This document shows, piece after piece, positions 10,488 to 51,888 of a stretch of DNA of 64,000 nt. Numbering within the stretch: the stretch's first letter is position 1; each line of letters starts with the position of its first letter. Location: the UHGV virus genome UHGV-0351052. One strand, written 5' to 3'. The DNA comes from a virus. The translations under genes and the position numbers were made by a program. A model generated the notes under the pieces. That model did no database searches, was not told the DNA's origin, and was given only the letters and a program-made list of their open reading frames with translations.

Positions 10488-10517
10488 ACTATAACACAAC
10501 ACGAGGGACTTGTAAAC
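10488..10517 (-). promoter_or_regulatory. sigma70-type early promoter (-35 GTTTACA, 17-bp spacer, -10 TATAGT)
   Basis: motif on minus strand; part of 54-bp cassette identical to 25900-25953. Confidence 0.5.
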
Positions 10518-12574
10518 TACATTTTGAACTTTTTAGACATTCCATTGATGTTAACCAAAGAAGCTAAGATTTGAGAAACTTCATTTTCCTCTTCTTTTGA
10601 TTCTTCTACAAGGAATTGATTAAATCCAGCCATTGGACGAACTTCACCAGTTTCCATTAGATGGTCGCCATCATATACTGATTCTTCTAATTGTTCAGAA
10701 GGAGGAACGATTGTACCTTCGATTAGATACTTGTTATAAGCAGTTTCTTTCATAAAGTACGTACTTACTTTATTAATCTTCAGTAAAATTCCACGCGGTA
10801 GAATAACTTCAGCTTCTGATGGAAATCCTGATAAATGACCTGGAACGATAACTTTGATTCGCTCAGCTCCTTTAATTACCATACCCACGCTAGTTTCAGC
10901 ATCTTCATTAGCATATGTAGAATGACTACCCATATGCATCAAATCTTCTGCATCAACAGAACCTTCTCCTTCGCCAGAAAATACTGCACCGGAATCATCT
11001 AGAGCCATATAGTTTTTACCATGCTCACCGAAGATATTTGGTTTAAGCGATGTGGATACGAAGTTCTTGAAATAGAACATTTTGTTTTCAATGTTATGAC
11101 GCAAAGTTTTAAAGGTAACTTCTTGTCCACGATAAAGCGTAGTTCCTGGAGGAAGAACTGAACCTTTAGCGAATGCAGAATCCAACGTCTCGATGTGCTT
11201 AATGGCACGTTCCATATATTCTTCACGGGTAGAATCTGGTTTACCCAAGAGGAACGAGTTCATTTCAACATATGAATCTGCACAATAATCTTCAATTACA
11301 TCAGACTCAGCCTGAGTCAGTCCTTTTGGAGTTACTTCGGTGCTTGCGTATTCATATGCCTGAGCAGCAGATTCATTAATCAATTTATAAATGCCATTCA
11401 TGACAAATTGAATAATAGCTACCTTTTCGTCTGGTGTGGCTTTAGAACCTTTAACTAAATCATTGATAATTTTCTTAATAACATCAAAGCTATTAGAAAT
11501 ATTAATGTCAGCGAGATCGCTTAAAATTTTATCGGTTTTATAATCAAAGAATTCTTTATTCTTTAAATATTCTTGAGAACCTTGATGTGTTATATCGCTC
11601 TGCAGCCTGATAGACGGATCACGTAAACGCGCATGGGCCAATGCAATATGATTTCGGAAGCTTTCTAGTTCATAATCGTTAGATTTAAAACGAGAGGCAC
11701 TTCTCATACCACCGATAGCTCCTTTGCCGAAGTTTGAACCAATCTGGATAACGCCAGAATTCATTGGTCCTTCTGCTTTATATACCGGAACTTTAGATTC
11801 AAACTCTTGATATTTCTTGGCAGCGAAGCTATCACCCTGAAGTGAAGCATCGACAGTAGAATATTGAGCTTGTGCTGCTAATCGACGACTAATTTTAGTT
11901 TTCTGAATAACCGCTTGGTCAGTACGTTTATCATTTTCTAAAGCAATAGAAGCAGCAACAGCGACAGCTTTAGGAACAGCATTACCTGTTTTAACGTCTA
12001 CATAAACATCACCGACCTTCGATTCAACTTTTGTGAATAACTCAGTTGAAATAGGAGGTACACCTGGAATGTCTTCTAAATTGGCATTTTTACGGTAAAC
12101 CATAATATATGCATACTTTTTATCATAGTCCCAGATTTCCTTTAAAAGAACATAACGACCTGCTCCTTTAGTACGTACTAAACGGTCAGCAATAACTTGC
12201 ATTTGACGAGCAGCTCCATTTGTTTTACTTTTTAGTACGCGGAATAAGCATGCGTCAATTTTATACTGTTTCATTGTTTGAAGAGCAGTATCAAAAACCG
12301 CATTAATGACACCAATTGGATTTCCACCCAAGTTTTTAAGTTTAACTAATGATAGTTTCTCATTAACACCTATCATTACGATATGCATCATTTTATCGCC
12401 TGGCTTAACGTTTTTATTTGTATCACCGCCAGAGGTGTATGTACAAAATCTAAATCCAGGAAGCACGCTTTCTTCACCGGCTTGAATAGCAAAAATTTGA
12501 GGTATTTTATGCTTAGGATTTAAGTTAACAACCGGCGCCGAAGCGCCGTCAAATAATTCTGTAATAAGTTCCAT
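10517..12574 (-). CDS. Alt-like ADP-ribosyltransferase paralog (685 aa)
   Basis: N-terminus MELITELFD and first ~230 aa similar to adjacent Alt; ART motifs R (TTLYRGQ), STS (FVSTSL), ExE (EAEVILPRG); divergent central region. Confidence 0.85.
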   Translation of the reverse strand: MELITELFDGASAPVVNLNPKHKIPQIFAIQAGEESVLPGFRFCTYTSGGDTNKNVKPGDKMMHIVMIGVNEKLSLVKLKNLGGNPIGVINAVFDTALQTMKQYKIDACLFRVLKSKTNGAARQMQVIADRLVRTKGAGRYVLLKEIWDYDKKYAYIMVYRKNANLEDIPGVPPISTELFTKVESKVGDVYVDVKTGNAVPKAVAVAASIALENDKRTDQAVIQKTKISRRLAAQAQYSTVDASLQGDSFAAKKYQEFESKVPVYKAEGPMNSGVIQIGSNFGKGAIGGMRSASRFKSNDYELESFRNHIALAHARLRDPSIRLQSDITHQGSQEYLKNKEFFDYKTDKILSDLADINISNSFDVIKKIINDLVKGSKATPDEKVAIIQFVMNGIYKLINESAAQAYEYASTEVTPKGLTQAESDVIEDYCADSYVEMNSFLLGKPDSTREEYMERAIKHIETLDSAFAKGSVLPPGTTLYRGQEVTFKTLRHNIENKMFYFKNFVSTSLKPNIFGEHGKNYMALDDSGAVFSGEGEGSVDAEDLMHMGSHSTYANEDAETSVGMVIKGAERIKVIVPGHLSGFPSEAEVILPRGILLKINKVSTYFMKETAYNKYLIEGTIVPPSEQLEESVYDGDHLMETGEVRPMAGFNQFLVEESKEEENEVSQILASLVNINGMSKKFKM

Positions 12575-12577
12575 GAT

Positions 12578-14635
12578 TTATCCTTGAACGAACTTGTAAG
12601 GCATGTTTGCAATATCTATGCAAGATGCAATAATTCCAAGAGATGATTCTACTTTTTGTTTAACATTTGATGAAACAAATGATGCAAAATCAACTCTGTC
12701 TTCTATTTCAATATCACCTGTCATTGCAACTACTTCACCGGTTTCCATTAGACGGTCACCGTCATAAATTACTGATTCGGTGAGTTCTTCTGTAGTCATA
12801 ACTTCAGCTTGAATAAGCTTGTTGTTAGTTTTAGCTGTTCCATCATTGTAAGATGCGTCGGTTATTTTATTGACTTTGACCATCAATCCACGCGGCAAAA
12901 TGACTTCCATTTCATTTGAAGGCGCTAAACTTCCACCTGGTAAAACAACGTTGACTTTATCAGCCCCAGTAATAACCCATCCAATTCCAACTAAATTATC
13001 GCTAGAATTAACAAGTCCTTCATCGTTTTTATCGATAGAAATGTTTAGACGCTTTTCGTCTGGTAAAACACCCACAGCTGAATCAGTCATCCAAGTACCA
13101 AAAATGTTTGGATATAATGATGTTGATACAAAATTTCTAAAATAAAAAACTCGATTTTTTACCAATGCTTCATATATTGAAGGTAACATTCGCTGTGAAC
13201 GATATAAAGTAATACCTTTTGGCAGTCGATCACCATTTTTAAAGGCTGAATCTAAATTATCGATGGCTTGTTCTATTTCTGGTGCTGTTAAAATACTTGT
13301 ACGCTCATCTGGATTATATAATCCCAAAAGAGCATTATTCATGTCTACATATCCTGAACCTACGTATTCACGAATTCCGCGTTTTTGTGCCGGTGTGTAT
13401 TTAGATGAATCTTTATTTTCGACTATAGAATGCAATGACCATCCAACGGTAAGAGCATATCCACGTAATTCTCTTCGAATAATCTTTGTTTTTATTGCGT
13501 TCCAAGAATTTTGCACTAACTCATTCGCAGCATCTTGATTTAAATGCGAATGCTTGTTAATATTTCTTTCTAACCAAGCACCTTTATATTTTTCTAAAGT
13601 ATCATCAACTATAGAAGCAATAGTTTCTAAAGTTTTTATTGAAGTAATAGATTCTTTTCGTAATCTTTCTAAAGCTTTATTTTTTATTTCTGCATTAACA
13701 TCAGATTCTTTATCTTCAGGAATTATAGAAGCTTCTCTGAATGCCATTCCAGCTGTAACACTATTAAGAGCATTCTCTAATGCAAATCCTGAAGTAGAAA
13801 TAACAGTTAATTCGTTAGCATCAGAAATTAAAGGCGCGTCAGCGGGTTTATTTAATTCTGCTGCTGAAGCCTCAAATTTTTGAAACATTGGTGTTTCAAA
13901 TCTAGAAGATTCTAACGATTGACTTTGTGCAATTGCTCTACGGGAAATTTTAACTTTAACGATTACAGCTTGGTCAGAACGTTTATCATTTTCTTGCGCA
14001 ATAGATGCTGCAATTGCCTCGTTTTTAGTTACTTGAGCTCCAGTATCTTTATTGATATAAACATCACCGACCTTCGATTCAACCTTAGTAAAGAGCTCGG
14101 TACTAATTTCCGGAACTCCTGGAATGTCTTCTAGTGATACATTTTTGCGATGTATAAGAATATATGCATACTTTTTATCATAATCCCAGAGTTCCTTAAG
14201 AAGGACGTATCTGCCACCTGAACGACTACGGATAAGTCTATCAGCAATAACTTGAATCTGTCGAGCTTGACCAGCGGTTTTAGACTTAAGAATACGGAGC
14301 ATACAGGCATCAATTTTATACTGACGCATTGTTTGCATTGCAACAGTAAAAACTGAATTGATATAATTAATTGGGCTTGGACCGAGACCTTTTAATTTAG
14401 CAATTGAACCTTTAGCAGTTAATGTAAAAGGAACAATATGCATCATTTTATCGCCCATCTTTAAATCACGATTAGTATCACCTCCAGATGTATAGGTACA
14501 TAAACGAAAGCCTGGTTGTTCAATTGCGTCATCAACATGAACTGAAAAAATTTGCGGTATTTTCTTCTTTGGATTTAAGTTTGTAATTGGAAGAGTAGTA
14601 TCTTCGTCAAATAGTTCTGTAATTAGTTCCATCAT
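12578..14635 (-). CDS. alt: Alt ADP-ribosyltransferase (685 aa)
   Basis: matches T4 Alt as recalled; ART motifs R (ITLYRSQ), STS, ExE (EMEVILPRG). Confidence 0.9.
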   Translation of the reverse strand: MMELITELFDEDTTLPITNLNPKKKIPQIFSVHVDDAIEQPGFRLCTYTSGGDTNRDLKMGDKMMHIVPFTLTAKGSIAKLKGLGPSPINYINSVFTVAMQTMRQYKIDACMLRILKSKTAGQARQIQVIADRLIRSRSGGRYVLLKELWDYDKKYAYILIHRKNVSLEDIPGVPEISTELFTKVESKVGDVYINKDTGAQVTKNEAIAASIAQENDKRSDQAVIVKVKISRRAIAQSQSLESSRFETPMFQKFEASAAELNKPADAPLISDANELTVISTSGFALENALNSVTAGMAFREASIIPEDKESDVNAEIKNKALERLRKESITSIKTLETIASIVDDTLEKYKGAWLERNINKHSHLNQDAANELVQNSWNAIKTKIIRRELRGYALTVGWSLHSIVENKDSSKYTPAQKRGIREYVGSGYVDMNNALLGLYNPDERTSILTAPEIEQAIDNLDSAFKNGDRLPKGITLYRSQRMLPSIYEALVKNRVFYFRNFVSTSLYPNIFGTWMTDSAVGVLPDEKRLNISIDKNDEGLVNSSDNLVGIGWVITGADKVNVVLPGGSLAPSNEMEVILPRGLMVKVNKITDASYNDGTAKTNNKLIQAEVMTTEELTESVIYDGDRLMETGEVVAMTGDIEIEDRVDFASFVSSNVKQKVESSLGIIASCIDIANMPYKFVQG

Positions 14636-39428: not shown

Positions 39429-39436
39429 TATAAATA
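39429..39436 (+). promoter_or_regulatory. late promoter TATAAATA for gene 34
   Basis: exact TATAAATA 35 nt upstream of gene 34 ATG. Confidence 0.5.
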
Positions 39437-39470: not shown

Positions 39471-42400
39471 ATGGCCGAGATTAAAAGAAAGTTCAGAGCA
39501 GAAGATGGTCTGGACGCAGGTGGTGATAAAATAATCAACGTAGCTTTAGCTGATCGTACCGTAGGAACTGACGGTGTTAACGTTGATTACTTAATTCAAG
39601 AAAACACAGTTCAACAATATGATCCAACTCGTGGATATTTAAAAGATTTTGTAATCATTTATAATAATCGTTTTTGGGCAGCAACGGATGATATTCCAAA
39701 ACCTGCTGGAAATTTTAATAGAATTCGTTGGAAAGCATTACGTACTGATGCTGTATATACAACCGTATCATCTGGACCATATCAATTAAAATCCGGAGAA
39801 GCAATTTCAGTAGATACATCAGTTGGCAATGACATTGAGTTTAATTTACCACCTTCTCCTCTTGATGGAGAAACCGTAATAATTCAAGATATTGGTGGAA
39901 AACCTGGTATAAATCAGGTTAAAATAAATTCTTCAAATCAGAGTATTGTTAATTTTAGAGGTGAACAGGTACGTTCAGTTCTAATGACTCATCCAAAGTC
40001 ACAAATGATATTCATTTTTAATAATCGTTTGTGGCAAATGTATGTTGCTGATTATAGCAGAGAAGCTGCGATTGTTACTCCATCGACTGCATATCAAGCA
40101 CAATCTAATGATTTTATCGTGCGTAGATTTACTTCTGCTTCAGCAATTAATATTAAACTTCCAAGATTTGCTAATCATGGCGATATTATTAATTTCGTTG
40201 ATTTGGATAAATTAAATCCTCTTTATCACACAATTGTTACTACATATGATGAAACAACTTCAGTACAAGAAGTTGGAACTCATTCCATTGAAGGTCGTAC
40301 ATCGATTGACGGTTTCTTGATGTTTGATGATAATGAGAAATTGTGGAGATTGTTTGACGGGGATAGTAAAGCACGTTTACGCATTATAACAACTAATTCT
40401 AATATTCGTCCAAATGAAGAAGTCATGGTGTTTGGTGCGAATAATGGAGCAACCCAAACAATTGAACTTCAGCTTCCGACTGATATTTCTGTTGGTGATA
40501 CTGTTAAAATTTCTATGAATTACATGAGAAAAGGACAAACAGTTAAAATCAAAGCTGCAGGTGAAGATAAAATTGCTTCCTCAGTTCAATTGCTGCAATT
40601 CCCAAAACGTTCAGAATATCCACCTGAAGCTGAGTGGGTTACAGTTCAAGAATTAGTTTTTAACGGTGAAACTAATTATGTTCCAGTTTTGGAGCTTGCT
40701 TATATAGAAGATTCTGATGGAAAATATTGGGTTGTACAGCAAAACGTTCCAACCGTAGAAAGAGTAGATTCTTTAAATGATTCTACTAGAGCAAGATTAG
40801 GCGTAATTGCTTTAGCTACACAAGCTCAAGCTAACGTCGATTTAGAAAATTCTCCACAAAAAGAATTAGCAATTACTCCAGAAACATTAGCTAACCGTAC
40901 TGCTACAGAAACTCGTAGAGGTATCGCAAGAATAGCAACTACTGCTCAAGTAAATCAGAACACTACATTCTCTTTTGCTGATGACCTTATCATCACTCCT
41001 AAAAAACTGAATGAAAGAACTGCCACAGAAACTCGTAGAGGCGTTGCTGAAATTGCCACACAGCAAGAAACTAACGCAGGTACTGATGATACTGCAATCA
41101 TCACTCCTAAAAAGCTTCAAGCTCGACAAGGTTCTGAATCATTATCGGGTATTGTAACCTTTGTATCTACCGCAGGAGCTACTCCAGCTTCTAGTCGTGA
41201 ATTAAATGGTACAAACGTTTATAATAAAAACACTAATAATTTAGTTGTTTCGCCTAAAGCTCTGGATCAGTATAAAGCTACTCCAACACAACAAGGTGCA
41301 GTAATTTTAGCAGTTGAAAGTGAAGTAATTGCTGGGCAAAGCCAAGAAGGATGGGCAAATGCGGTTGTAACGCCAGAAACGTTACATAAAAAGACATCAA
41401 CTGATGGAAGAATTGGTTTAATTGAAATTGCTACGCAAAGTGAAGTTAATACAGGAACTGATTACACTCGTGCAGTCACTCCGAAAACTTTAAATGACCG
41501 TATAGCAACTGAAAGTTTAAGTGGTATAGCTGAAATTGCTACACAAGTTGAATTCGACGCAGGCGTCGACGATACTCGTATCTCTACACCATTAAAAATT
41601 AAAACCAGATTTAATAGTACTGATCGTACTTCTGTTGTTGCTCTATCTGGATTAGTTGAATCAGGAACTCTCTGGGACCATTATACCCTTAATATTCTTG
41701 AAGCAAACGAGGCACAACGTGGTACACTTCGTGTAGCTACACAAGTTGAAGCTGCTGCAGGAACATTAGATAATGTTTTGATAACTCCTAAAAAGCTTTT
41801 AGGTACTAAATCTACTGAAGCACAAGAAGGTGTTATTAAAGTTGCAACTCAGTCTGAAACTGTGACTGGAACGTCAGCAAATACTGCTGTATCTCCAAAA
41901 AATTTAAAATGGATTGTGCAGAGTGAACCTACTTGGGCAGCAACTACTCTGATAAGAGGGTTTGTTAAAACTTCATCTGGTTCAATTACATTCGTTGGTA
42001 ATGATACCGTTGGTTCAACGCAGTCATTAGAATTATACGAGAAAAATGGTTATGCAGTATCACCATATGAATTAAATCGCGTATTAGCAAATTATTTGCC
42101 ATTAAAAGCAAAAGCTGTAGATAGTAATTTATTAGATGGTCTAGATTCGCTCCAGTTCATTCGTAGGGACATTGCACAAACAGTTAATGGTTCACTAACC
42201 TTAACCCAACAAACGAATCTGAGTGCCCCTCTTGTATCATCTAGTACTGCTACATTCGGTGGATCAGTTTCAGCAAATAGTACATTAACTATTTCTAATA
42301 CTGGAACGGCAACTCGTCTGATTTTTGAGAAAGGACCTCAAACTGGAACAAACCCGGCTCAAACGATGACTGTCAGAGTGTGGGGAAATCAATTTAGTGG

Positions 42401-43340
42401 GGAATCAGACACAACACGTTCTACCGTATTTGAAGTTAGTGATGAAACGTCTAGTCATTTTTATTCTCAGCGTAATAAAGCTGGAAATATAACATTTAAT
42501 ATCAACGGTACAGTAACACCGATAAATGTTAATGCTTCAGGAACATTGAATGCAAATGGTGTAGCAACATTTGGTAATTCAGTCACTGCAACTGGTGAAA
42601 TTATTTCTCGAAGCGCAAATGCTTTCCGTGCTATTAACGGAAATTATGGTTTCATTATTCGTAATGACGGGTCAGTAACGAATTTTATGCTTACTGCATC
42701 AGGCAATCAAACTGGTGGATTTAATGGATTACGTCCATTGTCCATTAATAATCAATCTGGGCAGGTCACAATTGGTGAAAGCTTGATCATTGCTAAAGGT
42801 GCTACTATAAATTCAGGTGGTTTAACTGTTAACTCGAGAATTCGTTCTCAAGGTGTTAAAACATCTGATTTATATACTCGTGCGCCGACATCTGATACTG
42901 TAGGATTCTGGTCAATCGATATTAATGATTCAGCCACTTATAACCAGTTCCCGGGTTATTTTAAAATGGTTGAAAAAACTAATGAAGTTACTGGACTTCC
43001 ATACTTAGAACGTGGCGAAGAAGTTAAATCTCCTGGTACATTGACTCAGTTTGGTAACACACTTGATTCACTTTACCAAGATTGGATTACTTATCCAACG
43101 ACTCCAGAAGCACGTACCACTCGCTGGACACGTACATGGCAAAAAACTAAAAACTCTTGGTCAAGTTTTGTTCAGGTATTTGATGGAGGTAACCCTCCTC
43201 AACCTTCGGATATAGGAGCAATCCCATCTGATAATGGAATAATAGGTAATCTTACTATTCGTGATTTCTTACGAATTGGTAATGTTCGCATTATTCCTGA
43301 CCCAGTGAATAAAACTGTTAAATTTGAATGGGTTGAATAA
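39471..43340 (+). CDS. 34: long tail fibre proximal subunit gp34
   Basis: 1289 aa; repeated TPK(T/K)L...T motifs; synteny. Confidence 0.95.
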   Translation: MAEIKRKFRAEDGLDAGGDKIINVALADRTVGTDGVNVDYLIQENTVQQYDPTRGYLKDFVIIYNNRFWAATDDIPKPAGNFNRIRWKALRTDAVYTTVSSGPYQLKSGEAISVDTSVGNDIEFNLPPSPLDGETVIIQDIGGKPGINQVKINSSNQSIVNFRGEQVRSVLMTHPKSQMIFIFNNRLWQMYVADYSREAAIVTPSTAYQAQSNDFIVRRFTSASAINIKLPRFANHGDIINFVDLDKLNPLYHTIVTTYDETTSVQEVGTHSIEGRTSIDGFLMFDDNEKLWRLFDGDSKARLRIITTNSNIRPNEEVMVFGANNGATQTIELQLPTDISVGDTVKISMNYMRKGQTVKIKAAGEDKIASSVQLLQFPKRSEYPPEAEWVTVQELVFNGETNYVPVLELAYIEDSDGKYWVVQQNVPTVERVDSLNDSTRARLGVIALATQAQANVDLENSPQKELAITPETLANRTATETRRGIARIATTAQVNQNTTFSFADDLIITPKKLNERTATETRRGVAEIATQQETNAGTDDTAIITPKKLQARQGSESLSGIVTFVSTAGATPASSRELNGTNVYNKNTNNLVVSPKALDQYKATPTQQGAVILAVESEVIAGQSQEGWANAVVTPETLHKKTSTDGRIGLIEIATQSEVNTGTDYTRAVTPKTLNDRIATESLSGIAEIATQVEFDAGVDDTRISTPLKIKTRFNSTDRTSVVALSGLVESGTLWDHYTLNILEANEAQRGTLRVATQVEAAAGTLDNVLITPKKLLGTKSTEAQEGVIKVATQSETVTGTSANTAVSPKNLKWIVQSEPTWAATTLIRGFVKTSSGSITFVGNDTVGSTQSLELYEKNGYAVSPYELNRVLANYLPLKAKAVDSNLLDGLDSLQFIRRDIAQTVNGSLTLTQQTNLSAPLVSSSTATFGGSVSANSTLTISNTGTATRLIFEKGPQTGTNPAQTMTVRVWGNQFSGESDTTRSTVFEVSDETSSHFYSQRNKAGNITFNINGTVTPINVNASGTLNANGVATFGNSVTATGEIISRSANAFRAINGNYGFIIRNDGSVTNFMLTASGNQTGGFNGLRPLSINNQSGQVTIGESLIIAKGATINSGGLTVNSRIRSQGVKTSDLYTRAPTSDTVGFWSIDINDSATYNQFPGYFKMVEKTNEVTGLPYLERGEEVKSPGTLTQFGNTLDSLYQDWITYPTTPEARTTRWTRTWQKTKNSWSSFVQVFDGGNPPQPSDIGAIPSDNGIIGNLTIRDFLRIGNVRIIPDPVNKTVKFEWVE

Positions 43341-43351
43341 GAGGAGATATT

Positions 43352-44467
43352 ATGGAAAAATTTATGGCAGAGTTTGGACAGGGATATGTCCAAACGCCAT
43401 TTTTATCGGAAAGCAATTCAGTAAGATATAAAATAAGCATAGCGGGCTCTTGCCCGCTTTCTACTGCAGGGCCATATGTTAAATTTCAGGATAATCCCGT
43501 TGGAAATCAAACATTTAGTGCAGGTCTTCATTTAAGAGTTTTTGACCCTTCTACGGGAGCATTAGTTGATAGTAAGTCATATGCTTTTTCTGCTTCAAAC
43601 AATACAACATCTGCCGCTTTTGTCAGTTTCATGAATTCTTTGTCAAACAATAAACTTGTTGCTATATTAACTAGCGGAAAGGTTAATTTTCCTCCTGAAG
43701 TGGTATCTTGGTTAAGGAGAGCAGGAACTTCAGTTTTTCCATCAGATTCAGTATTGTCAAGATTTGACGTATCATATGCTGCTTTTTATACTTCTTCTAA
43801 AAGAGCTATCGCATTAGAGCATGTTAAACTAAGTAATAGAAAAAGCACAGATGACTATCAAACTATGCTAGATGTTGTATTTGATAGTTTAGAAGACGTT
43901 GGAGCGACAGGATTTCCAAAAAGAACTTATGAAAGCGTTGAACAATTTATGTCTGCGGTTGGAGGAACTAATAATGAAATTGCGCGATTGCCAACTTCAG
44001 CTGCTATAAGTAAACTTTCTGACTACAATTTAATTCCTGGTGATGTTCTTTATCTTAAAGCACAGTTATATGCTGATGCTGATTTACTTGATCTTGGAAC
44101 TGCAAATATATCTATTCGTTTTTATGATGCATCAAATGGATATATTTCCTCGACCCAAGCTGAGTTTACTGGGCAAGCTGGGTCTTGGGAATTAAAAGAA
44201 GATTATGTAGTTGTTCCTGAAAATGCAGTAGGATTTACGATATATGCACAAAGAACTGCCCAAGCAGGTCAAGGCGGCATGAGAAATTTAAGCTTTTCTG
44301 AAGTATCAAGAAATGGCGGAATTTCGAAACCTGCTGAATTTGGTGTCAATGGTATTCGTGTTAATTATATCGGTGAATCCTCTTCACCTCCAGATATAAT
44401 GGTACTTCCTACACAGGCATCGTCTAAAACTGGTAAAGTGTTTGGACAGGAATTTAGAGAAGTTTAA
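43352..44467 (+). CDS. 35: long tail fibre hinge protein gp35
   Basis: 371 aa; synteny. Confidence 0.9.
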   Translation: MEKFMAEFGQGYVQTPFLSESNSVRYKISIAGSCPLSTAGPYVKFQDNPVGNQTFSAGLHLRVFDPSTGALVDSKSYAFSASNNTTSAAFVSFMNSLSNNKLVAILTSGKVNFPPEVVSWLRRAGTSVFPSDSVLSRFDVSYAAFYTSSKRAIALEHVKLSNRKSTDDYQTMLDVVFDSLEDVGATGFPKRTYESVEQFMSAVGGTNNEIARLPTSAAISKLSDYNLIPGDVLYLKAQLYADADLLDLGTANISIRFYDASNGYISSTQAEFTGQAGSWELKEDYVVVPENAVGFTIYAQRTAQAGQGGMRNLSFSEVSRNGGISKPAEFGVNGIRVNYIGESSSPPDIMVLPTQASSKTGKVFGQEFREV

Positions 44468-44498: not shown

Positions 44499-44506
44499 TA
44501 TAAATA
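44499..44506 (+). promoter_or_regulatory. late promoter TATAAATA for gene 36
   Basis: exact TATAAATA 24 nt upstream of gene 36 ATG. Confidence 0.5.
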
Positions 44507-44529: not shown

Positions 44530-45180
44530 ATGGCTGATTTAAAAGTAGGTTCAACTGTAGGTGGATCTGTCATTTGGCATCAAGGAAATTTTCCGTTGAA
44601 TTCAGCCGGTGACGATGTACTCTACAAATCATTTAAAATATATTCAGAATATAATAAACCACAGGCATCTGATAATGATTTCGTTTCTAAATCTACTGGT
44701 GGTACTTACACTGGTCCAATTACTATTAATTACGGGGTAAATAGTTATCTTCAATTAAGTAATAATGAAACCCCAATTCGAATTCGTTCCGGTGGCGGTA
44801 CCGGTAATACTCTTGTAATTGGCGGCTCTTCTGGCGGTATTAGTTTTAGACCTGCGGGTAGTGAAATCACTACTGGACAAATTACTATTACGCCAGAAGG
44901 TTTGACAACATTTACTAGGGCTGTAACGGCTCCATCTGTAACTGTTACATCTACTCCTTCCGCAGCATCAGATGCTACTCGTAAAGATTATGTTGATGGA
45001 GCAATAAATACTGTTACAGCAAATGCAAACTCTAGGGTATTACGCTCTGGAGACACTATGACAGGAAATTTAACTGCGCCAAACCTTTTTTCACAGAATC
45101 CTGCATCTCAACCTTCACACGTTCCACGATTTGACCAAATCGTAATTAAGGATTCTGTTCAAGATTTCGGCTATTATTAA
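44530..45180 (+). CDS. 36: long tail fibre distal connector gp36
   Basis: 216 aa; synteny. Confidence 0.85.
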
Positions 45181-45188
45181 GAGGACTT

Positions 45189-48100
45189 ATGGCTACTTTA
45201 AAACAAATACAATTTAAAAGAAGCAAAACTGCAGGTCAACTTCCTGCTGCTTCAGTATTAGCCGAAGGTGAATTGGCTATTAATTTAAAAGATAAAACAA
45301 TTTTCACAAAAGATGACTCAGGCAATGTTATAGAATTAGGTTTAAAATATGGAGGAACAATTGATGGTTCTTTAACTGTTAATGGAAATATAATTGGAAA
45401 TTTAACAGGTAACGCTGCAACTGCAACGAAATTAAAAACAGCACGAAAAATTAATGGTATATCCTTTGATGGGTCAAAGGATATCACGCTAACTCCATCT
45501 GACATAAATGTCAATAGCACAACATTTATAAAAAATAATGGCGAATTACCTGTTGATGCTAATTTAGATGAGTATGGGCCTGTTGAAGAATATCTTGGAG
45601 TTTGGTCGAAAGCAACTTCAACCAACGCTCAACCAGCAAATAAATTTCCAGAACAAAATGCTGTAGGTGTGCTAGAAGTATTTGTGGCCGGTCAATTTGC
45701 TGGTACTCAGAGATATACAACTAGATACGGAAATGTTTATATTCGTTCCTTGACTGCTACATGGAACGGAGTAAATGGTCCGTGGAGTGTGTGGCGAAAT
45801 ATTCAATCCGGTACTCGTTCACTGTCAACAACAATTGATCTTAATGATCTAGGAGGCGCTGAACACTTGGGTTTGTGGCGAAATAGTTCAAATTCCATTG
45901 CTACCTTTGACAGAAATTTCCCAGAAGAAGGATCGTCAGCTCAAGGACTTTTAGAAGTATATGAAGGTGGAAACTATTCTCGCACACAGAGATATACGAC
46001 CAGATTTGGTGTTGTTTATACTCGCTGTCTTACTGCTGCGTGGGATGCTTCTGCGCCTAAATGGGGACCGTGGCAACAAGTCGGTAATGTCACACCAGCG
46101 ACTTTTTATGATGGAGATCTGAATGATTTTAAAACTCCTGGGTTATATAATATTTTAGGCACTGATGCCGTTATTAACTGTCCTACAGGTGAAGGTTTGC
46201 CGACTGTTATTGTTGGTTTGCTGGAAGTTAAACAGCGTGCTTCTGGCGGTGCTATTTTCCAAAAATTTACTACTGCCGGAACGGGTTCAACTACTCGCGA
46301 TCGTATTTTTGAGCGCGCATATACCGGCGGTGTTTGGGGTACATGGAACGAAGTATACACATCCTATTCTCTACCAATTACTTTGGGTATGGGCGGTATT
46401 AAATCTAACTTAGCTGAGTTAGACTGGCAAACCTTTGATTTTGTCCCTGGTAGTATGTTTAGTGTTCCTTTGAACAAAATAAAGAATATGCCAGCAAATA
46501 TGGATTGGGGTACGATTGACGGAAACTTGGTTATGTTTTCTGTCGGTCCTAGCGAACACACTAGCACAGGGCGTACTGTTCAGGTTTGGCGTGGTACTGT
46601 ATCCCAGACAAACTACCGTTATTTTGTCGTTCGTGTGTTCGGTAATTCTGGAAATAGAACTTGTACAGTTCGACGCGTTGTTCTTGAAGATGGTCGCCAC
46701 AAATGGACAGCGCAACAAGATTTTAATGGTGCAGTTAACTTCGGTGCTCCTACCAATTTTAACTCTACTGTTAACCTTAATAACACTACCACATTTAAAA
46801 CAGAAGTTAAATTCCGCTCATTGAATGCATTTAAAATGTATGGTGGTAATTTTGGTACAATTTTCCGTAATGATGGTGAAAGTCTTTATATTCTTTCCAC
46901 CAACGAAAATGATCAAGATGGAAACTTTAACACCAATAGACCTTTCCGGTATCAGTTTAGAACTGGTGATGTTACTTTGGGTGGAACTAGTGGTGCTAAT
47001 ATTTTAAGATTAAAAAGTAGTTCTCTTGCTGCTACCTTTGGTGGTGATGTTAACTTAAGTAAAGGTACATTGACGTTTGAGGCGGGTGGTAAGCAATCAC
47101 GAGATTACTTCCGGTTTAACCATTGGGGTGATAGCAATAACGCTCGTGATAACATTATTCAGTTAGAAGACAGCAAAGGCGCTCATTTTTCCACTGAACG
47201 TACTTTAGCGACAGGTGCAATTAAAACTCGTTTCTTTGGCGAAACATTCACTGATGGTACATTATACCTAAATCAGATGAATAATAGCTCTGAACGATTC
47301 TCTATCAACAATTGGGGAAATTCAGAAGCTGGACGCGCGGCAGTATTGGAAGTCGGCGATTCCAAAGGTTATCACTTCTATACGGAACGCAGGACAGATA
47401 ACAGTTTGATGTTTGATGTTGCTGGCGCTTTTACTGTGCATGGACCTTCCGGGATTACTATCAAAAACTCAGCTGGCGCACGCCATATCTGGTTTAGAGA
47501 TGATAGCGATGCAGAAAAGGCTGTTATCTGGGCTACAGATGATGGTCTTTTACATATACGAAATAATAATGGGGGTTCATTTAGTCATCACTTCCAGGGT
47601 GCAATGATTAAAGTGGGAGAGCGTGTTCCTTATGCCGGAGATCGAGGGCTTATTCGCGGTGAAGTTTCTGGTGGTGCTTATGTGGATTGGAGAGGCCGCC
47701 CTGCTGGTTTGTTGCTTGACTGTCAACAAAGCGTTAATAGTGCTCATGCTATTTGGAAAGCGGTTGATTGGGGGCGTAACTACATCGCTGCTCTGGACGT
47801 TCATTGTCCCGGCGATAGTAATAATACTGCAGCAGCGGTTCTCCATGTTCAGTCTGCTGATTATCAATTCCATGCAAATGGGAGCTTTGATGCCAGTGGC
47901 AACGGAAACTTTAACGATGTTTATATTCGATCAGACCGTCGCCTTAAAGACAATATAGAAGATTATACCGGAAATGCGTTAAGTTTGATTGGTAAACTGA
48001 AAGTGAAAACTTACGATAAAGTTAAATCTCTTAAGGACCGTGAAATTATCGGTCATGAGATCGGCATTATCGCACAGGATTTACAAGAAATATTACCAGA

Positions 48101-48284
48101 AGCGATTAATATTTCGAAAATTGGCAATCTTGATAAACCAGACGAAGTTCTGACAATTTCTAACTCTGCTGTGAATGCTCTTTTAATTAAGGCCATTCAG
48201 GAAATGAGTGAAGAAATTAAAGAATTGAAAACGCCTTTCTTCACTAAAATTGCTCGCAAAATTGGTAAATATTTTAAATTCTAA
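45189..48284 (+). CDS. 37: long tail fibre distal subunit gp37 with C-terminal intramolecular-chaperone-like domain
   Basis: 1031 aa; C-terminal ~110 aa (..[13 protein letters not shown]..) resembles autocleaving IMC domains. Confidence 0.95.
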
Positions 48285-48288
48285 CAAC

Positions 48289-48308
48289 AAGGGGGAAATT
48301 TCCCCCTT
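48289..48308 (+). other. perfect 20-bp palindrome AAGGGGGAAATTTCCCCCTT between genes 37 and 38
   Basis: hairpin-forming palindrome; short T-tract only. Confidence 0.4.
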
Positions 48309-48321
48309 TGGAGTATAAATT

Positions 48322-49104
48322 ATGGCAGTAGTTGGAGTTCCTGGCTGGATTGGAAGTTCAGCCGTAAATGAAACGGGACAGCGCTGGATGAGTCAAGCGG
48401 CTGGTCAACTAAGATTGGGTGTTCCTTGCTGGATGAGTCAATTTTCAGGTCGCTCGCGAGAAATTATTCATACACTTGGCGCAGACCATAACTTCAATGG
48501 TCAATGGTTCCGTGATAGATGCTTTGAGGCGGGTAGTACACCTATAGTGTTTAATATTACAGGTGATTTAGTATCATATTCTAAAGATGTTCCTTTATTC
48601 TTCATGTACGGGGATACACCTAATGAATATGTTCAGTTAAATATACACGGCGTAACGATGTATGGTCGTGGTGGTAATGGCGGTAGCAATGGTCCTGGCT
48701 CATCTGGTGGTCATTGTATTCAAAATGATATTGGTGGAAGACTAAGAATTAATAATGGAGGTGCTATCGCAGGCGGTGGCGGTGGTGGCGGTGGTGGGTA
48801 TTATTCTCCCACGAAACCAATGAAATTAACCTTTGGTGGTGGTGGCGGTCGTCCGTTTGGTGCTGCTGGTGGATCTGCCAACATGCAATCAGGCGCAACT
48901 GCTGGTACTCTTTATGCGCCTGGCGCAGGGTCTGTAAACGGTGTCTATAGCGGCGGTGGCGGTGGTGAGGTAGGCGCCGCAGGAGGTAGATGCAATATTC
49001 GCGGTCAAGGATCTGAATATAATGGCGGCGCTGCTGGTTATGCTGTCATAGGGTCCGCTCCAACATGGCAAAATGTTGGAGCAATATATGGTCCAAGAGT
49101 ATAA
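48322..49104 (+). CDS. 38: T2-type gp38 receptor-binding adhesin with glycine-rich motifs
   Basis: 260 aa; conserved N-terminus [15 protein letters not shown]; poly-Gly tracts GGGGGGGGG separating variable segments. Confidence 0.85.
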
Positions 49105-49134: not shown

Positions 49135-49791
49135 ATGGCAGCACCTAGAATATCATTTTCGCCCTCTGATATTCTGTTGGGTGTTCTAGATCGCTTGTTC
49201 AAAGATAATGCTACCGGGAAAGTTCTTGCTTCCCGGGTAGCTGTCGTAATTCTTTTGTTTATAATGGCGATTGTTTGGTATAGGGGAGATAGTTTCTTTG
49301 AGTACTATAAGCAATCAAAGTATGAAACATACCGTGAAATTGTTGAAAAGGAAAGAAATGCACGCTTTGAATCTGTCGCCCTGGAACAACTCCAGATAGT
49401 TCATATATCATCTGAGGCAGACTTTAGTGCGGTGTATTCTTTCCGCCCTAAAAACTTAAACTATTTTGTTGATATTATAGCATATGAAGGAAGATTACCT
49501 TCAACAATAACTGAAAAATCACTTGGAGGATATCCTGTTGATAAAACTATGGATGAATATACAGTTCATTTAAATGGACGCCATTATTATTCCAACTCAA
49601 AATTTGCTTTTTTACCAACTAAAAAGCCTACTCCCGAAATAAACTACATGTACAGTTGTCCATATTTTAATTTGGATAATATCTATGCTGGAACAATAAC
49701 TATGTACTGGTATAGAAATGATCATATAAGTAATGACCGCCTTGAATCAATATGTGCTCAGGCGGCCAGAATATTAGGAAGGGCTAAATAA
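49135..49791 (+). CDS. t: holin T
   Basis: 218 aa; matches T4 holin as recalled. Confidence 0.95.
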   Translation: MAAPRISFSPSDILLGVLDRLFKDNATGKVLASRVAVVILLFIMAIVWYRGDSFFEYYKQSKYETYREIVEKERNARFESVALEQLQIVHISSEADFSAVYSFRPKNLNYFVDIIAYEGRLPSTITEKSLGGYPVDKTMDEYTVHLNGRHYYSNSKFAFLPTKKPTPEINYMYSCPYFNLDNIYAGTITMYWYRNDHISNDRLESICAQAARILGRAK

Positions 49792-51086: not shown

Positions 51087-51547
51087 TAGTAAAGGTCCTC
51101 AGAGTAAAGTTCTTTTTCACTACCACCGCGTTCAATACGTACTTGTCCAGCATAAGTTGCAATAATCATTGCTTCTTCGCGTGTCCAATAATTACTATAT
51201 TGGTCAATAAACCCTTGGTCATCATCACAAACTTGCTGAGTAACTAATTGAGGTTTAACTACATCTAAAACTTCTGCCATATCTTTAGAATAATGACGAG
51301 CACCTGGAATAATAAGAGTTCGTCCATCTTTTAATTTAAAACGGTTGGCTGCGCAGACAATTCGTCGTTGATACTTTTGGTTTTCATCCCAATACGCAGT
51401 CTGCCAACAGATTTCAGGAACTTCTTTCAGAATATCTTCTTCTGTGCATTTATAACCATGTGCTTTAAATTTTTCAACAAGACTTTCTGGAGTTTCACGA
51501 GATAAAGGAACATTCAGCATTTTTAAACGATTAATAAATGGGTTCAT
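51086..51547 (-). CDS. hypothetical protein (153 aa)
   Basis: ORF. Confidence 0.6.
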
Positions 51548-51888
51548 TTAAACCATCCTTTAATACGCTGCCACAAAGTTTTCTGTTGAGCTTTGTTAAC
51601 ACCAATTGAGCGAATAACTGGTTGAGATTCCTGGAATTCTTTATAATCAGCAAGGTAAATTTCGTAAGCCGATTGAACAAAGGTACTAATCGCTGCCATG
51701 AAGTTTTTACGTACACCGCCAGGAGCTACTCCGTTAGGTAATTCAGAATTTTCACGAATAATTAAATATAGCCCAGTTCTAACTTTAACAATAGTTCCAA
51801 GATAAGCTCCGTGGTACCAGATGTCCCACCCCTCTTGAGTGGGTTCTGCACAACGACGAAGTTCATTGATAATTTCTAACTTGTTCAT
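51544..51888 (-). CDS. hypothetical protein (114 aa)
   Basis: ORF. Confidence 0.6.

Follow-up and report, generated by a model that had tools for sequence, protein, structure and literature searches.

A T2/T6-type tail fibre tip locus in phage genome UHGV-0351052, with a predicted self-cleaving gp37 and a mosaic gp38 adhesin

A cleavable chaperone at the end of the tail fibre protein gp37, a glycine-rich adhesin (gp38) and recombination between the motifs of that adhesin have been known in T-even phages since the 1980s and 1990s, and structures have been solved; the module as a whole has been described before (Drexler 1986; Tetart 1998; Trojet 2011, PMC3157838; Dunne 2018; PMC7917993). In phage T2, whose receptor is FadL (PMC3157838), gp37 is proteolytically processed and loses its C-terminus in morphogenesis (Drexler 1986, as cited in PMC3157838). 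By the account given in the work on Salmonella phage S16, tryptophans of the gp38 attachment domain insert into the tip of gp37. In T4, gp37 has its own receptor-binding tip and lacks an S74 domain, while gp38 is not in the virion. The corresponding region was analysed here in a 64,000-nt stretch of the viral genome UHGV-0351052 (the window), which is part of a Tequatrovirus (T4-like phage) genome. Positions 45189–49104, comprising g37 and g38, are almost certainly a tip module of the T2/T6 type, from the distal end of the long tail fibre of a T-even phage (Tequatrovirus). Its features are as follows; aa, amino acids; ORF, open reading frame.

45189–48284, plus strand: g37, 1031 aa (ORF list and Pfam scan)
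45189–47930, plus strand: mature part of g37, aa 1–914, the distal half-fibre (ORF; homology to T2 and T4 gp37; Gp34_trimer)
47931–48284, plus strand: C-terminal intramolecular chaperone, or Peptidase_S74 domain, of g37, aa 915–1031 (117 aa and the stop codon)
48322–49104, plus strand: g38, 260 aa (ORF list and Pfam scan)
48322–48660, plus strand: g38 aa 1–113, attachment domain for the gp37 tip, linker and start of the beta-helix (Pfam Gp38_N; W9, W22, W37)
48661–49104, plus strand: g38 aa 114–260, receptor-specificity domain (Pfam GP38; entropy; PDB matches; AlphaFold2 model)

An original prediction, made from the letters of the window, had likened the gp37 C-terminus to autoproteolytic intramolecular chaperones, and this was upheld by a Pfam match together with profile and model matches to solved S74 domains. 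The Pfam match, to Peptidase_S74 ('chaperone of endosialidase', PF13884), covered aa 915–972 (E = 1.4e-14; 54.6 bits, the cut-off being 22 bits), and the protein ends in KIGKYFKF directly before the stop codon. Comparison of the domain profile with the PDB returned S16 gp37 (6f45_A, E = 2e-17), the tail fibre 8jov (E = 3e-15), the MyRF ICA domain (7dc3, E = 6e-10) and the GA-1 neck-appendage chaperone (3gud, E = 9e-4). An AlphaFold2 model of the domain (predicted local distance difference test, pLDDT, 84) matched 7dc3 (E = 2e-6; template modelling score, TM, 0.69), and also 3gud (probability 1.0) and the endosialidase chaperone 3gw6 (probability 0.97–1.0). The C-terminal region aligned to aa 1147–1341 of T2 gp37 at 33% identity, the motif YIRSD.RLK included, whereas the C-terminus of T4 gp37 gave no alignment with it. 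The module had been predicted to span 47950–49104; the end is correct, being the g38 stop codon, but the start lies 19 nt inside the chaperone domain. The motif quoted in that prediction starts at N909 (nt 47913), while the domain starts at S915 (nt 47931).

Alignments of 18 and 20 homologues showed that S915, D916, L919, K920 and N922 are invariant, as is the series G959-x-I961-A962-Q963. A word-index search with the gp37 C-terminus gave nothing but short fragments, and its matches served solely for the domain alignment. The five-residue spacing of S915 and K920 (S-D-x-x-L-K, with which the domain begins) is that of the Ser-Lys catalytic pair of the family, and the region aligns with SDRRIK of S16; Ser915 is the predicted nucleophile and Lys920 the predicted base. 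Both residues stand in the context DVYIR^SDRRLK, of which DVYIR^S aligns with the cleavage site that has been published for S16 and for the fPS phages. The S16 motif is S^SDRRIKK, aligned with R^SDRRLKD in the window, and DVYIR^SD(G/R)RLK in the fPS phages was itself assigned through alignment to S16. On the 5' side of the cleavage site, S16 gp37 is unrelated to the window protein except for the last five residues. By analogy with S16 and with T2, self-cleavage is predicted to occur between R914 and S915, which would free a 117-residue fragment and release the gp37 C-terminus.

Alternatively, the mature fibre could keep its S74-like domain, which would then be a degenerate remnant that does not cleave or a structural cap. 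Cleavage of this gp37 is a prediction from homologues, and the S74 homologues include some whose cleavage is untried. However, every residue that is invariant in the family, the Ser-Lys pair included, is intact; DVYIR^SD is the same in form as sites known or assigned as cleaved, and T2 gp37, which is alignable over the S74 region, loses its C-terminus. Docking of gp38 also requires an exposed gp37 tip, as the S16 structure is described. Retention of the domain was therefore considered very unlikely, and a removable chaperone is the preferred reading.

The S74 domains of endosialidase K1F (3GW6), the GA-1 neck appendage (3GUD) and MyRF (7DC3) share the Pfam family, the Ser-Lys pair and the predicted fold with the window domain, and are likewise C-terminal on a trimeric fibre, although sequence identity is only 10–23%. 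In the endosialidases the cut end is not known to be capped; in the window, by analogy with the tip complexes above, a separate adhesin would cap the newly cut end of gp37. A 303-aa protein labelled as E. coli, from outside the window, carries both Peptidase_S74 and GP38 domains, and represents either a fusion of the g37 end with g38 or a frameshifted assembly.

The mature part of gp37 begins with 66 aa that are 76–79% identical to T2 and T4 gp37, and a Gp34_trimer domain was identified by Pfam at aa 521–587. The whole protein has 1031 aa against 1341 aa in T2. The mature part ends in the DVYIR strand, onto which gp38 is predicted to dock. A receptor-binding tip of T4 type within gp37 was considered and rejected, alignment with T4 gp37 being limited to the N-terminus and generic fibre repeats. 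Between aa ~125 and 298 (45560–46085), gp37 contains two tandem units of ~80 aa with the motif G.LEV...TQRYTTR.G.VY.R.LTA.W, and this repeat region is where g37 diverges most among related phages. The units were 40% identical in a direct comparison of one segment with the other (E = 2e-20); self-BLAST of gp37, run at E 1e-3, reported no repeat within the protein, and a possible third copy at aa 305–395 was not significant.

The product of g38 matched the GP38 adhesin family (PF05268, aa 47–260, E = 6e-72, 242.5 bits) and Gp38_N (PF21721, aa 1–41, E = 2e-20, 72.9 bits), the Pfam cut-off being 25 bits in each case. Its identity to known adhesins was 48% for T2 (E = 2e-45), 88% for T6, 93% for RB3, RB5 and FL15, and 95% for phiS, and clustering at 90% places it together with RB27 and FL23. 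One Logan contig was the sole source of exact matches to gp37 and gp38, the nearest named gp38 being 95% identical. Within the attachment domain, W9 and W22 are invariant among 38 homologues, with W37 conserved to 90% or more; aa 1–113 as a whole are 96–100% identical to RB3, SHFML-26 and phiS. It is the same 113 N-terminal residues that had to be swapped for those of T2 gp38 before PP01 gp38 was functional on T2 gp37 (PMC12892980).

The remainder of gp38, aa 114–260, is 35% glycine, compared with 11.5% in aa 1–113, and this glycine-rich makeup is not a chance effect. The sequence GGGGGGGGG occupies aa 151–159, and GGGGG occurs at aa 172–176 and 211–215. Two kinds of segment alternate:

About aa 114–159, 172–180, 200–203, 211–221 and 235–260 of gp38, plus strand: glycine-rich motifs (GRM)
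About aa 160–171, 181–199, 204–210 and 222–234 of gp38, plus strand: hypervariable segments (HVS1–4)

Column entropy across 120 homologues was 0.3–1.0 in the N-terminal half and the glycine-rich blocks, and 1.6–2.4 in the segments between them. The original prediction of a 260-aa protein whose N-terminus is conserved and which has poly-glycine tracts between variable segments therefore agrees with both the ORF and the entropy profile. The glycine-rich motifs keep 73–100% identity in relatives whose hypervariable segments drop to about 10–30%; in the two most distant relatives, FL08 and T2, motif identity is down to 45–78%. With its five glycine-rich motifs and four hypervariable segments, gp38 has the GRM/HVS layout of Trojet 2011 (PMC3157838).

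When gp38 was compared with the PDB by sequence, it matched 9v85, which is the receptor-binding domain of PP01 gp38 (PMC12892980), with E = 1e-81, and S16 gp38 (6f45_D) with E = 6e-50. An AlphaFold2 model (pLDDT 88), for which the alignment left out the T2 and T6 rows, had a TM of 0.75–0.87 to these two structures; a search with the model picked out just one fold, that of 9v85_C (E = 5e-26, TMt 0.87) and 6f45_D (E = 8e-21). The predicted fold, which the model suggests to be a polyglycine-II sandwich, superposes on both the S16 tip complex (PDB 6F45) and PP01 gp38 (PDB 9V85). The loops of these proteins, both of which bind OmpC, differ from those of the window.

These matches bear on whether gp38 might instead resemble T4 gp38 in being an assembly chaperone, which would help gp37 to fold and then be released, leaving gp37 to bear the receptor-binding tip. 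The position of g38, between g37 and t, is that of T4 gene 38. However, T4 gp38 shares only that position and its name: an alignment with T4 gp38, cited in the original prediction as the result that would count against an adhesin, was sought by BLASTP and no similarity was found (best E = 1.7 over 12 residues). The family, sequence and fold matches to adhesins are strong, and gp37 is unlike T4 gp37 in its C-terminus, ending in a removable S74 domain rather than a receptor-binding tip. An assembly chaperone was thus rejected as next to impossible, and gp38 is treated as an adhesin, as had been predicted.

Among adhesins, the locus most resembles those of T6, RB3, RB5, RB27, FL15 and FL23, with which it shares gp38 length (258–261 aa), domain order, glycine-rich motifs and 88–93% identity over gp38 as a whole, as well as the gp37 cleavage motif, the chaperone domain and the gene order. 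It differs from the T6/RB3 type in HVS1 and HVS2, which match those of the Krischvirus phiS instead, and in patches of central gp37. The T2 gp37-gp38 pair shares the architecture, and all glycine-rich motifs of its gp38 align; however, the hypervariable segments are unrelated (8–31% identical) and the N-terminal attachment region is 40–63% identical. The label 'T2-type' in the original prediction is apt for architecture but not for specificity, where gp38 is T6-like by sequence, with Tsx the predicted receptor.

A mechanism can be proposed from the studied homologues T2, T6, S16 and PP01. Trimerisation of gp37 would be aided by its own 117-residue C-terminal chaperone; once the fibre has folded, Ser915 and Lys920 would cut the R914-S915 bond and the chaperone would depart. 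The exposed DVYIR tip would then be capped by one gp38, attached through its tryptophan-bearing N-terminal domain, and the C-terminal polyglycine-II sandwich would present four hypervariable loops that may bind an outer-membrane protein.

The locus was also predicted to be a recombination hotspot, and mosaicism is visible both in g37, which is a patchwork, and inside g38, which is a chimera. At least 80% of g37-g38 was covered by 40 of 634 matching phage records, as against 476 of 1072 for the upstream 24 kb, and sliding identity to the compared Tequatrovirus relatives was 93–100% across g34–g36 and from t onward. Within g37 the best relative was SHFML-26 (99–100%) to about 46000 and RB3/T6 (97–99%) near 46450; between about 46750 and 47050 all compared relatives showed 88% identity or less, while the tip and chaperone domain were SHFML-26-like at 125 of 139 informative sites. 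One patch was delimited within g38 by informative sites:

48760–48981, plus strand: phiS-like patch in g38, aa ~147–220 (HVS1, HVS2 and part of HVS3)

Both flanks of this patch match the Shigella phage SHFML-26, a Tequatrovirus, and 25 consecutive SHFML-26-like informative sites follow it; the final 110 nt of g38 are again of this type. HVS1 and HVS2 match phiS at 100% identity, compared with 67–74% for SHFML-26 and RB3; phiS is a Krischvirus that shares almost no DNA with the window outside the g37-g38 locus. A Fisher test on the patch gave p of about 2e-25, a significance that is overstated given that the breakpoints were chosen first, although the block pattern is plain. Both ends of the patch lie within DNA coding for glycine-rich motifs, and recombination through such DNA is the mechanism of Tetart et al. 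1998, as cited in PMC3157838. The patch is the footprint of an exchange. It is proposed that the locus is mosaic because the conserved glycine-motif DNA and the flanks (where g36 ends and g37 starts, the chaperone domain together with the N-terminus of g38, and gene t) would serve as homology arms.

Patchy identity might also arise by point mutation, locally accelerated under selection, without any recombination. Diversifying selection does act on the hypervariable loops, and additional point mutations were seen in the hypervariable segments of recombinants (Trojet 2011, PMC3157838). However, the informative sites fall in long unbroken blocks, SHFML-26-like, then phiS-like, then SHFML-26-like again, and the best donor of the patch comes from another genus with almost no other DNA in common; mutation alone was considered extremely unlikely, and exchange is preferred. 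In the phiS locus, g38 and t are separated by an additional ORF of 79 aa (11848–12087), which is found in neither the window nor its Tequatrovirus relatives.

The best guess for the receptor, by homology alone, is the nucleoside channel Tsx, because gp38 resembles the adhesins of T6, RB3, RB5, RB27, FL15 and FL23. RB3, RB5 and RB27 use Tsx (Trojet 2011, PMC3157838), as do FL04, FL15 and FL23 (Lutz 2025, PMC12032242). Several observations weigh against the reading as set out so far. Cleavage, capping, the number of gp38 molecules per tip and the receptor alike are inferred from homologues, while the mosaicism, the predicted folds, the catalytic residues, the motif layout and the domain identities are results of the analysis. 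PST differs from T6 at 3 residues and targets OmpA plus Tsx (Trojet 2011, PMC3157838), small changes in hypervariable segments are known to alter specificity within the T6-like clade, and fPS-65, whose gp38 is 92.7% identical, has been assigned a lipopolysaccharide (LPS) inner-core receptor on Yersinia. Furthermore, the allele joins HVS1–2 of phiS type with HVS4 of SHFML-26 type, a combination found in no characterised phage.

A receptor other than Tsx (OmpA, the LPS core or a dual specificity) could accordingly follow from the chimeric hypervariable set: HVS1 and HVS2 are just 67–74% identical to those of the Tsx users RB3 and T6, yet fully identical to phiS, and PST and fPS-65 demonstrate that the receptor can shift among close T6-like alleles. 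Nevertheless, the specificity domain is 87–92% identical to T6-clade adhesins, compared with 49–76% to M1, Ac3, FL18, FL08 and T2; gp38 phylogeny predicts the receptor well (Lutz 2025, PMC12032242); and the cluster mates RB27 and FL23 are Tsx users. A different receptor is unlikely, while retaining a real chance, and Tsx is preferred.

The spacer between g37 and g38 contains two further elements:

48290–48309, plus strand: stem-loop AAGGGGGAAATTTCCCCCTT (sequence, RNA fold and comparison with relatives)
48310–48313, plus strand: ribosome-binding site of g38, GGAG

AAGGGGGAAATTTCCCCCTT is a perfect 20-nt palindrome within a spacer of 37 nt, directly 5' of the ribosome-binding site. Its RNA fold has an energy of -14.8 kcal/mol, with a fold z-score of -1.8 that is unremarkable alone. 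The stem is kept in SHFML-26, RB3, phiS and AV121, and alignment showed that it is retained through compensatory changes in T6 (GGGGC/GCCCC) and T2 (GAGGGC/GCCCTC); an exact search for the hairpin among the seven compared loci gave no match. The T4 late-promoter consensus TATAAATA was not enriched: the window contains 12 matches, where 8.9 were expected. Among them, only those at 39429–39436 (~35 nt 5' of the g34 start) and 44499–44506 (~24 nt 5' of the g36 start) are placed as T4 late promoters would be. No exact copy stands directly before g37 or g38, although the g38 leader holds TATAAATT; this absence suggests that g36, g37 and g38 are read as one late transcript.

The neighbouring genes, identified from the ORF list and Pfam scan, were:

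39471–43340: g34
43352–44467: g35
44530–45180: g36
49135–49791: holin gene t
3' of t, on the strand opposite to the fibre genes: asiA

The order g34-g35-g36-g37-g38-t-asiA is common to T2, T6, T4 and the window, which supports its interpretation as a T-even fibre tip. The 24 kb on the 5' side of g37 are ~95–96% identical to many Tequatrovirus genomes. G+C content is 0.476 at 48500–48999, compared with about 0.35–0.40 around it, because of the GGN codons. Scans of the whole window for tRNA genes and Rfam families gave no matches.

Other observations concerned the rest of the window. The fibre hinge protein gp35 (43352–44467) has a Pfam match, above cut-off, to ILEI (interleukin-like EMT inducer, PF15711) at aa 58–122 (E = 6e-8). 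Two full-length ORFs of 685 aa adjoin on the minus strand, at 10517–12574 and 12578–14635, and share 42% identity. Judged by synteny, their counterparts in phage AV121 appear to be genes whose annotation is Alt RNA-polymerase ADP-ribosyltransferase; of the two copies so annotated in AV121, one is short. Identity to all six relatives covering the region dips to about 75–82% at 51550–51850, between flanks at 92–98%; the dip lies within a minus-strand ORF (51544–51888) in the arn/motA region.

The g37-g38 locus sets which bacteria the phage adsorbs to, and is the place at which host range could be predicted or changed. Novelty is restricted to the allele, and no new principle is involved; the value of the locus lies in a receptor prediction, Tsx, and in another natural, cross-genus chimeric gp38. 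It is a fairly remote prospect that this chimera binds a receptor, or a variant of Tsx, used by neither parental type; if true, it would be a natural case of specificity created by the reassortment of loops across phage genera.

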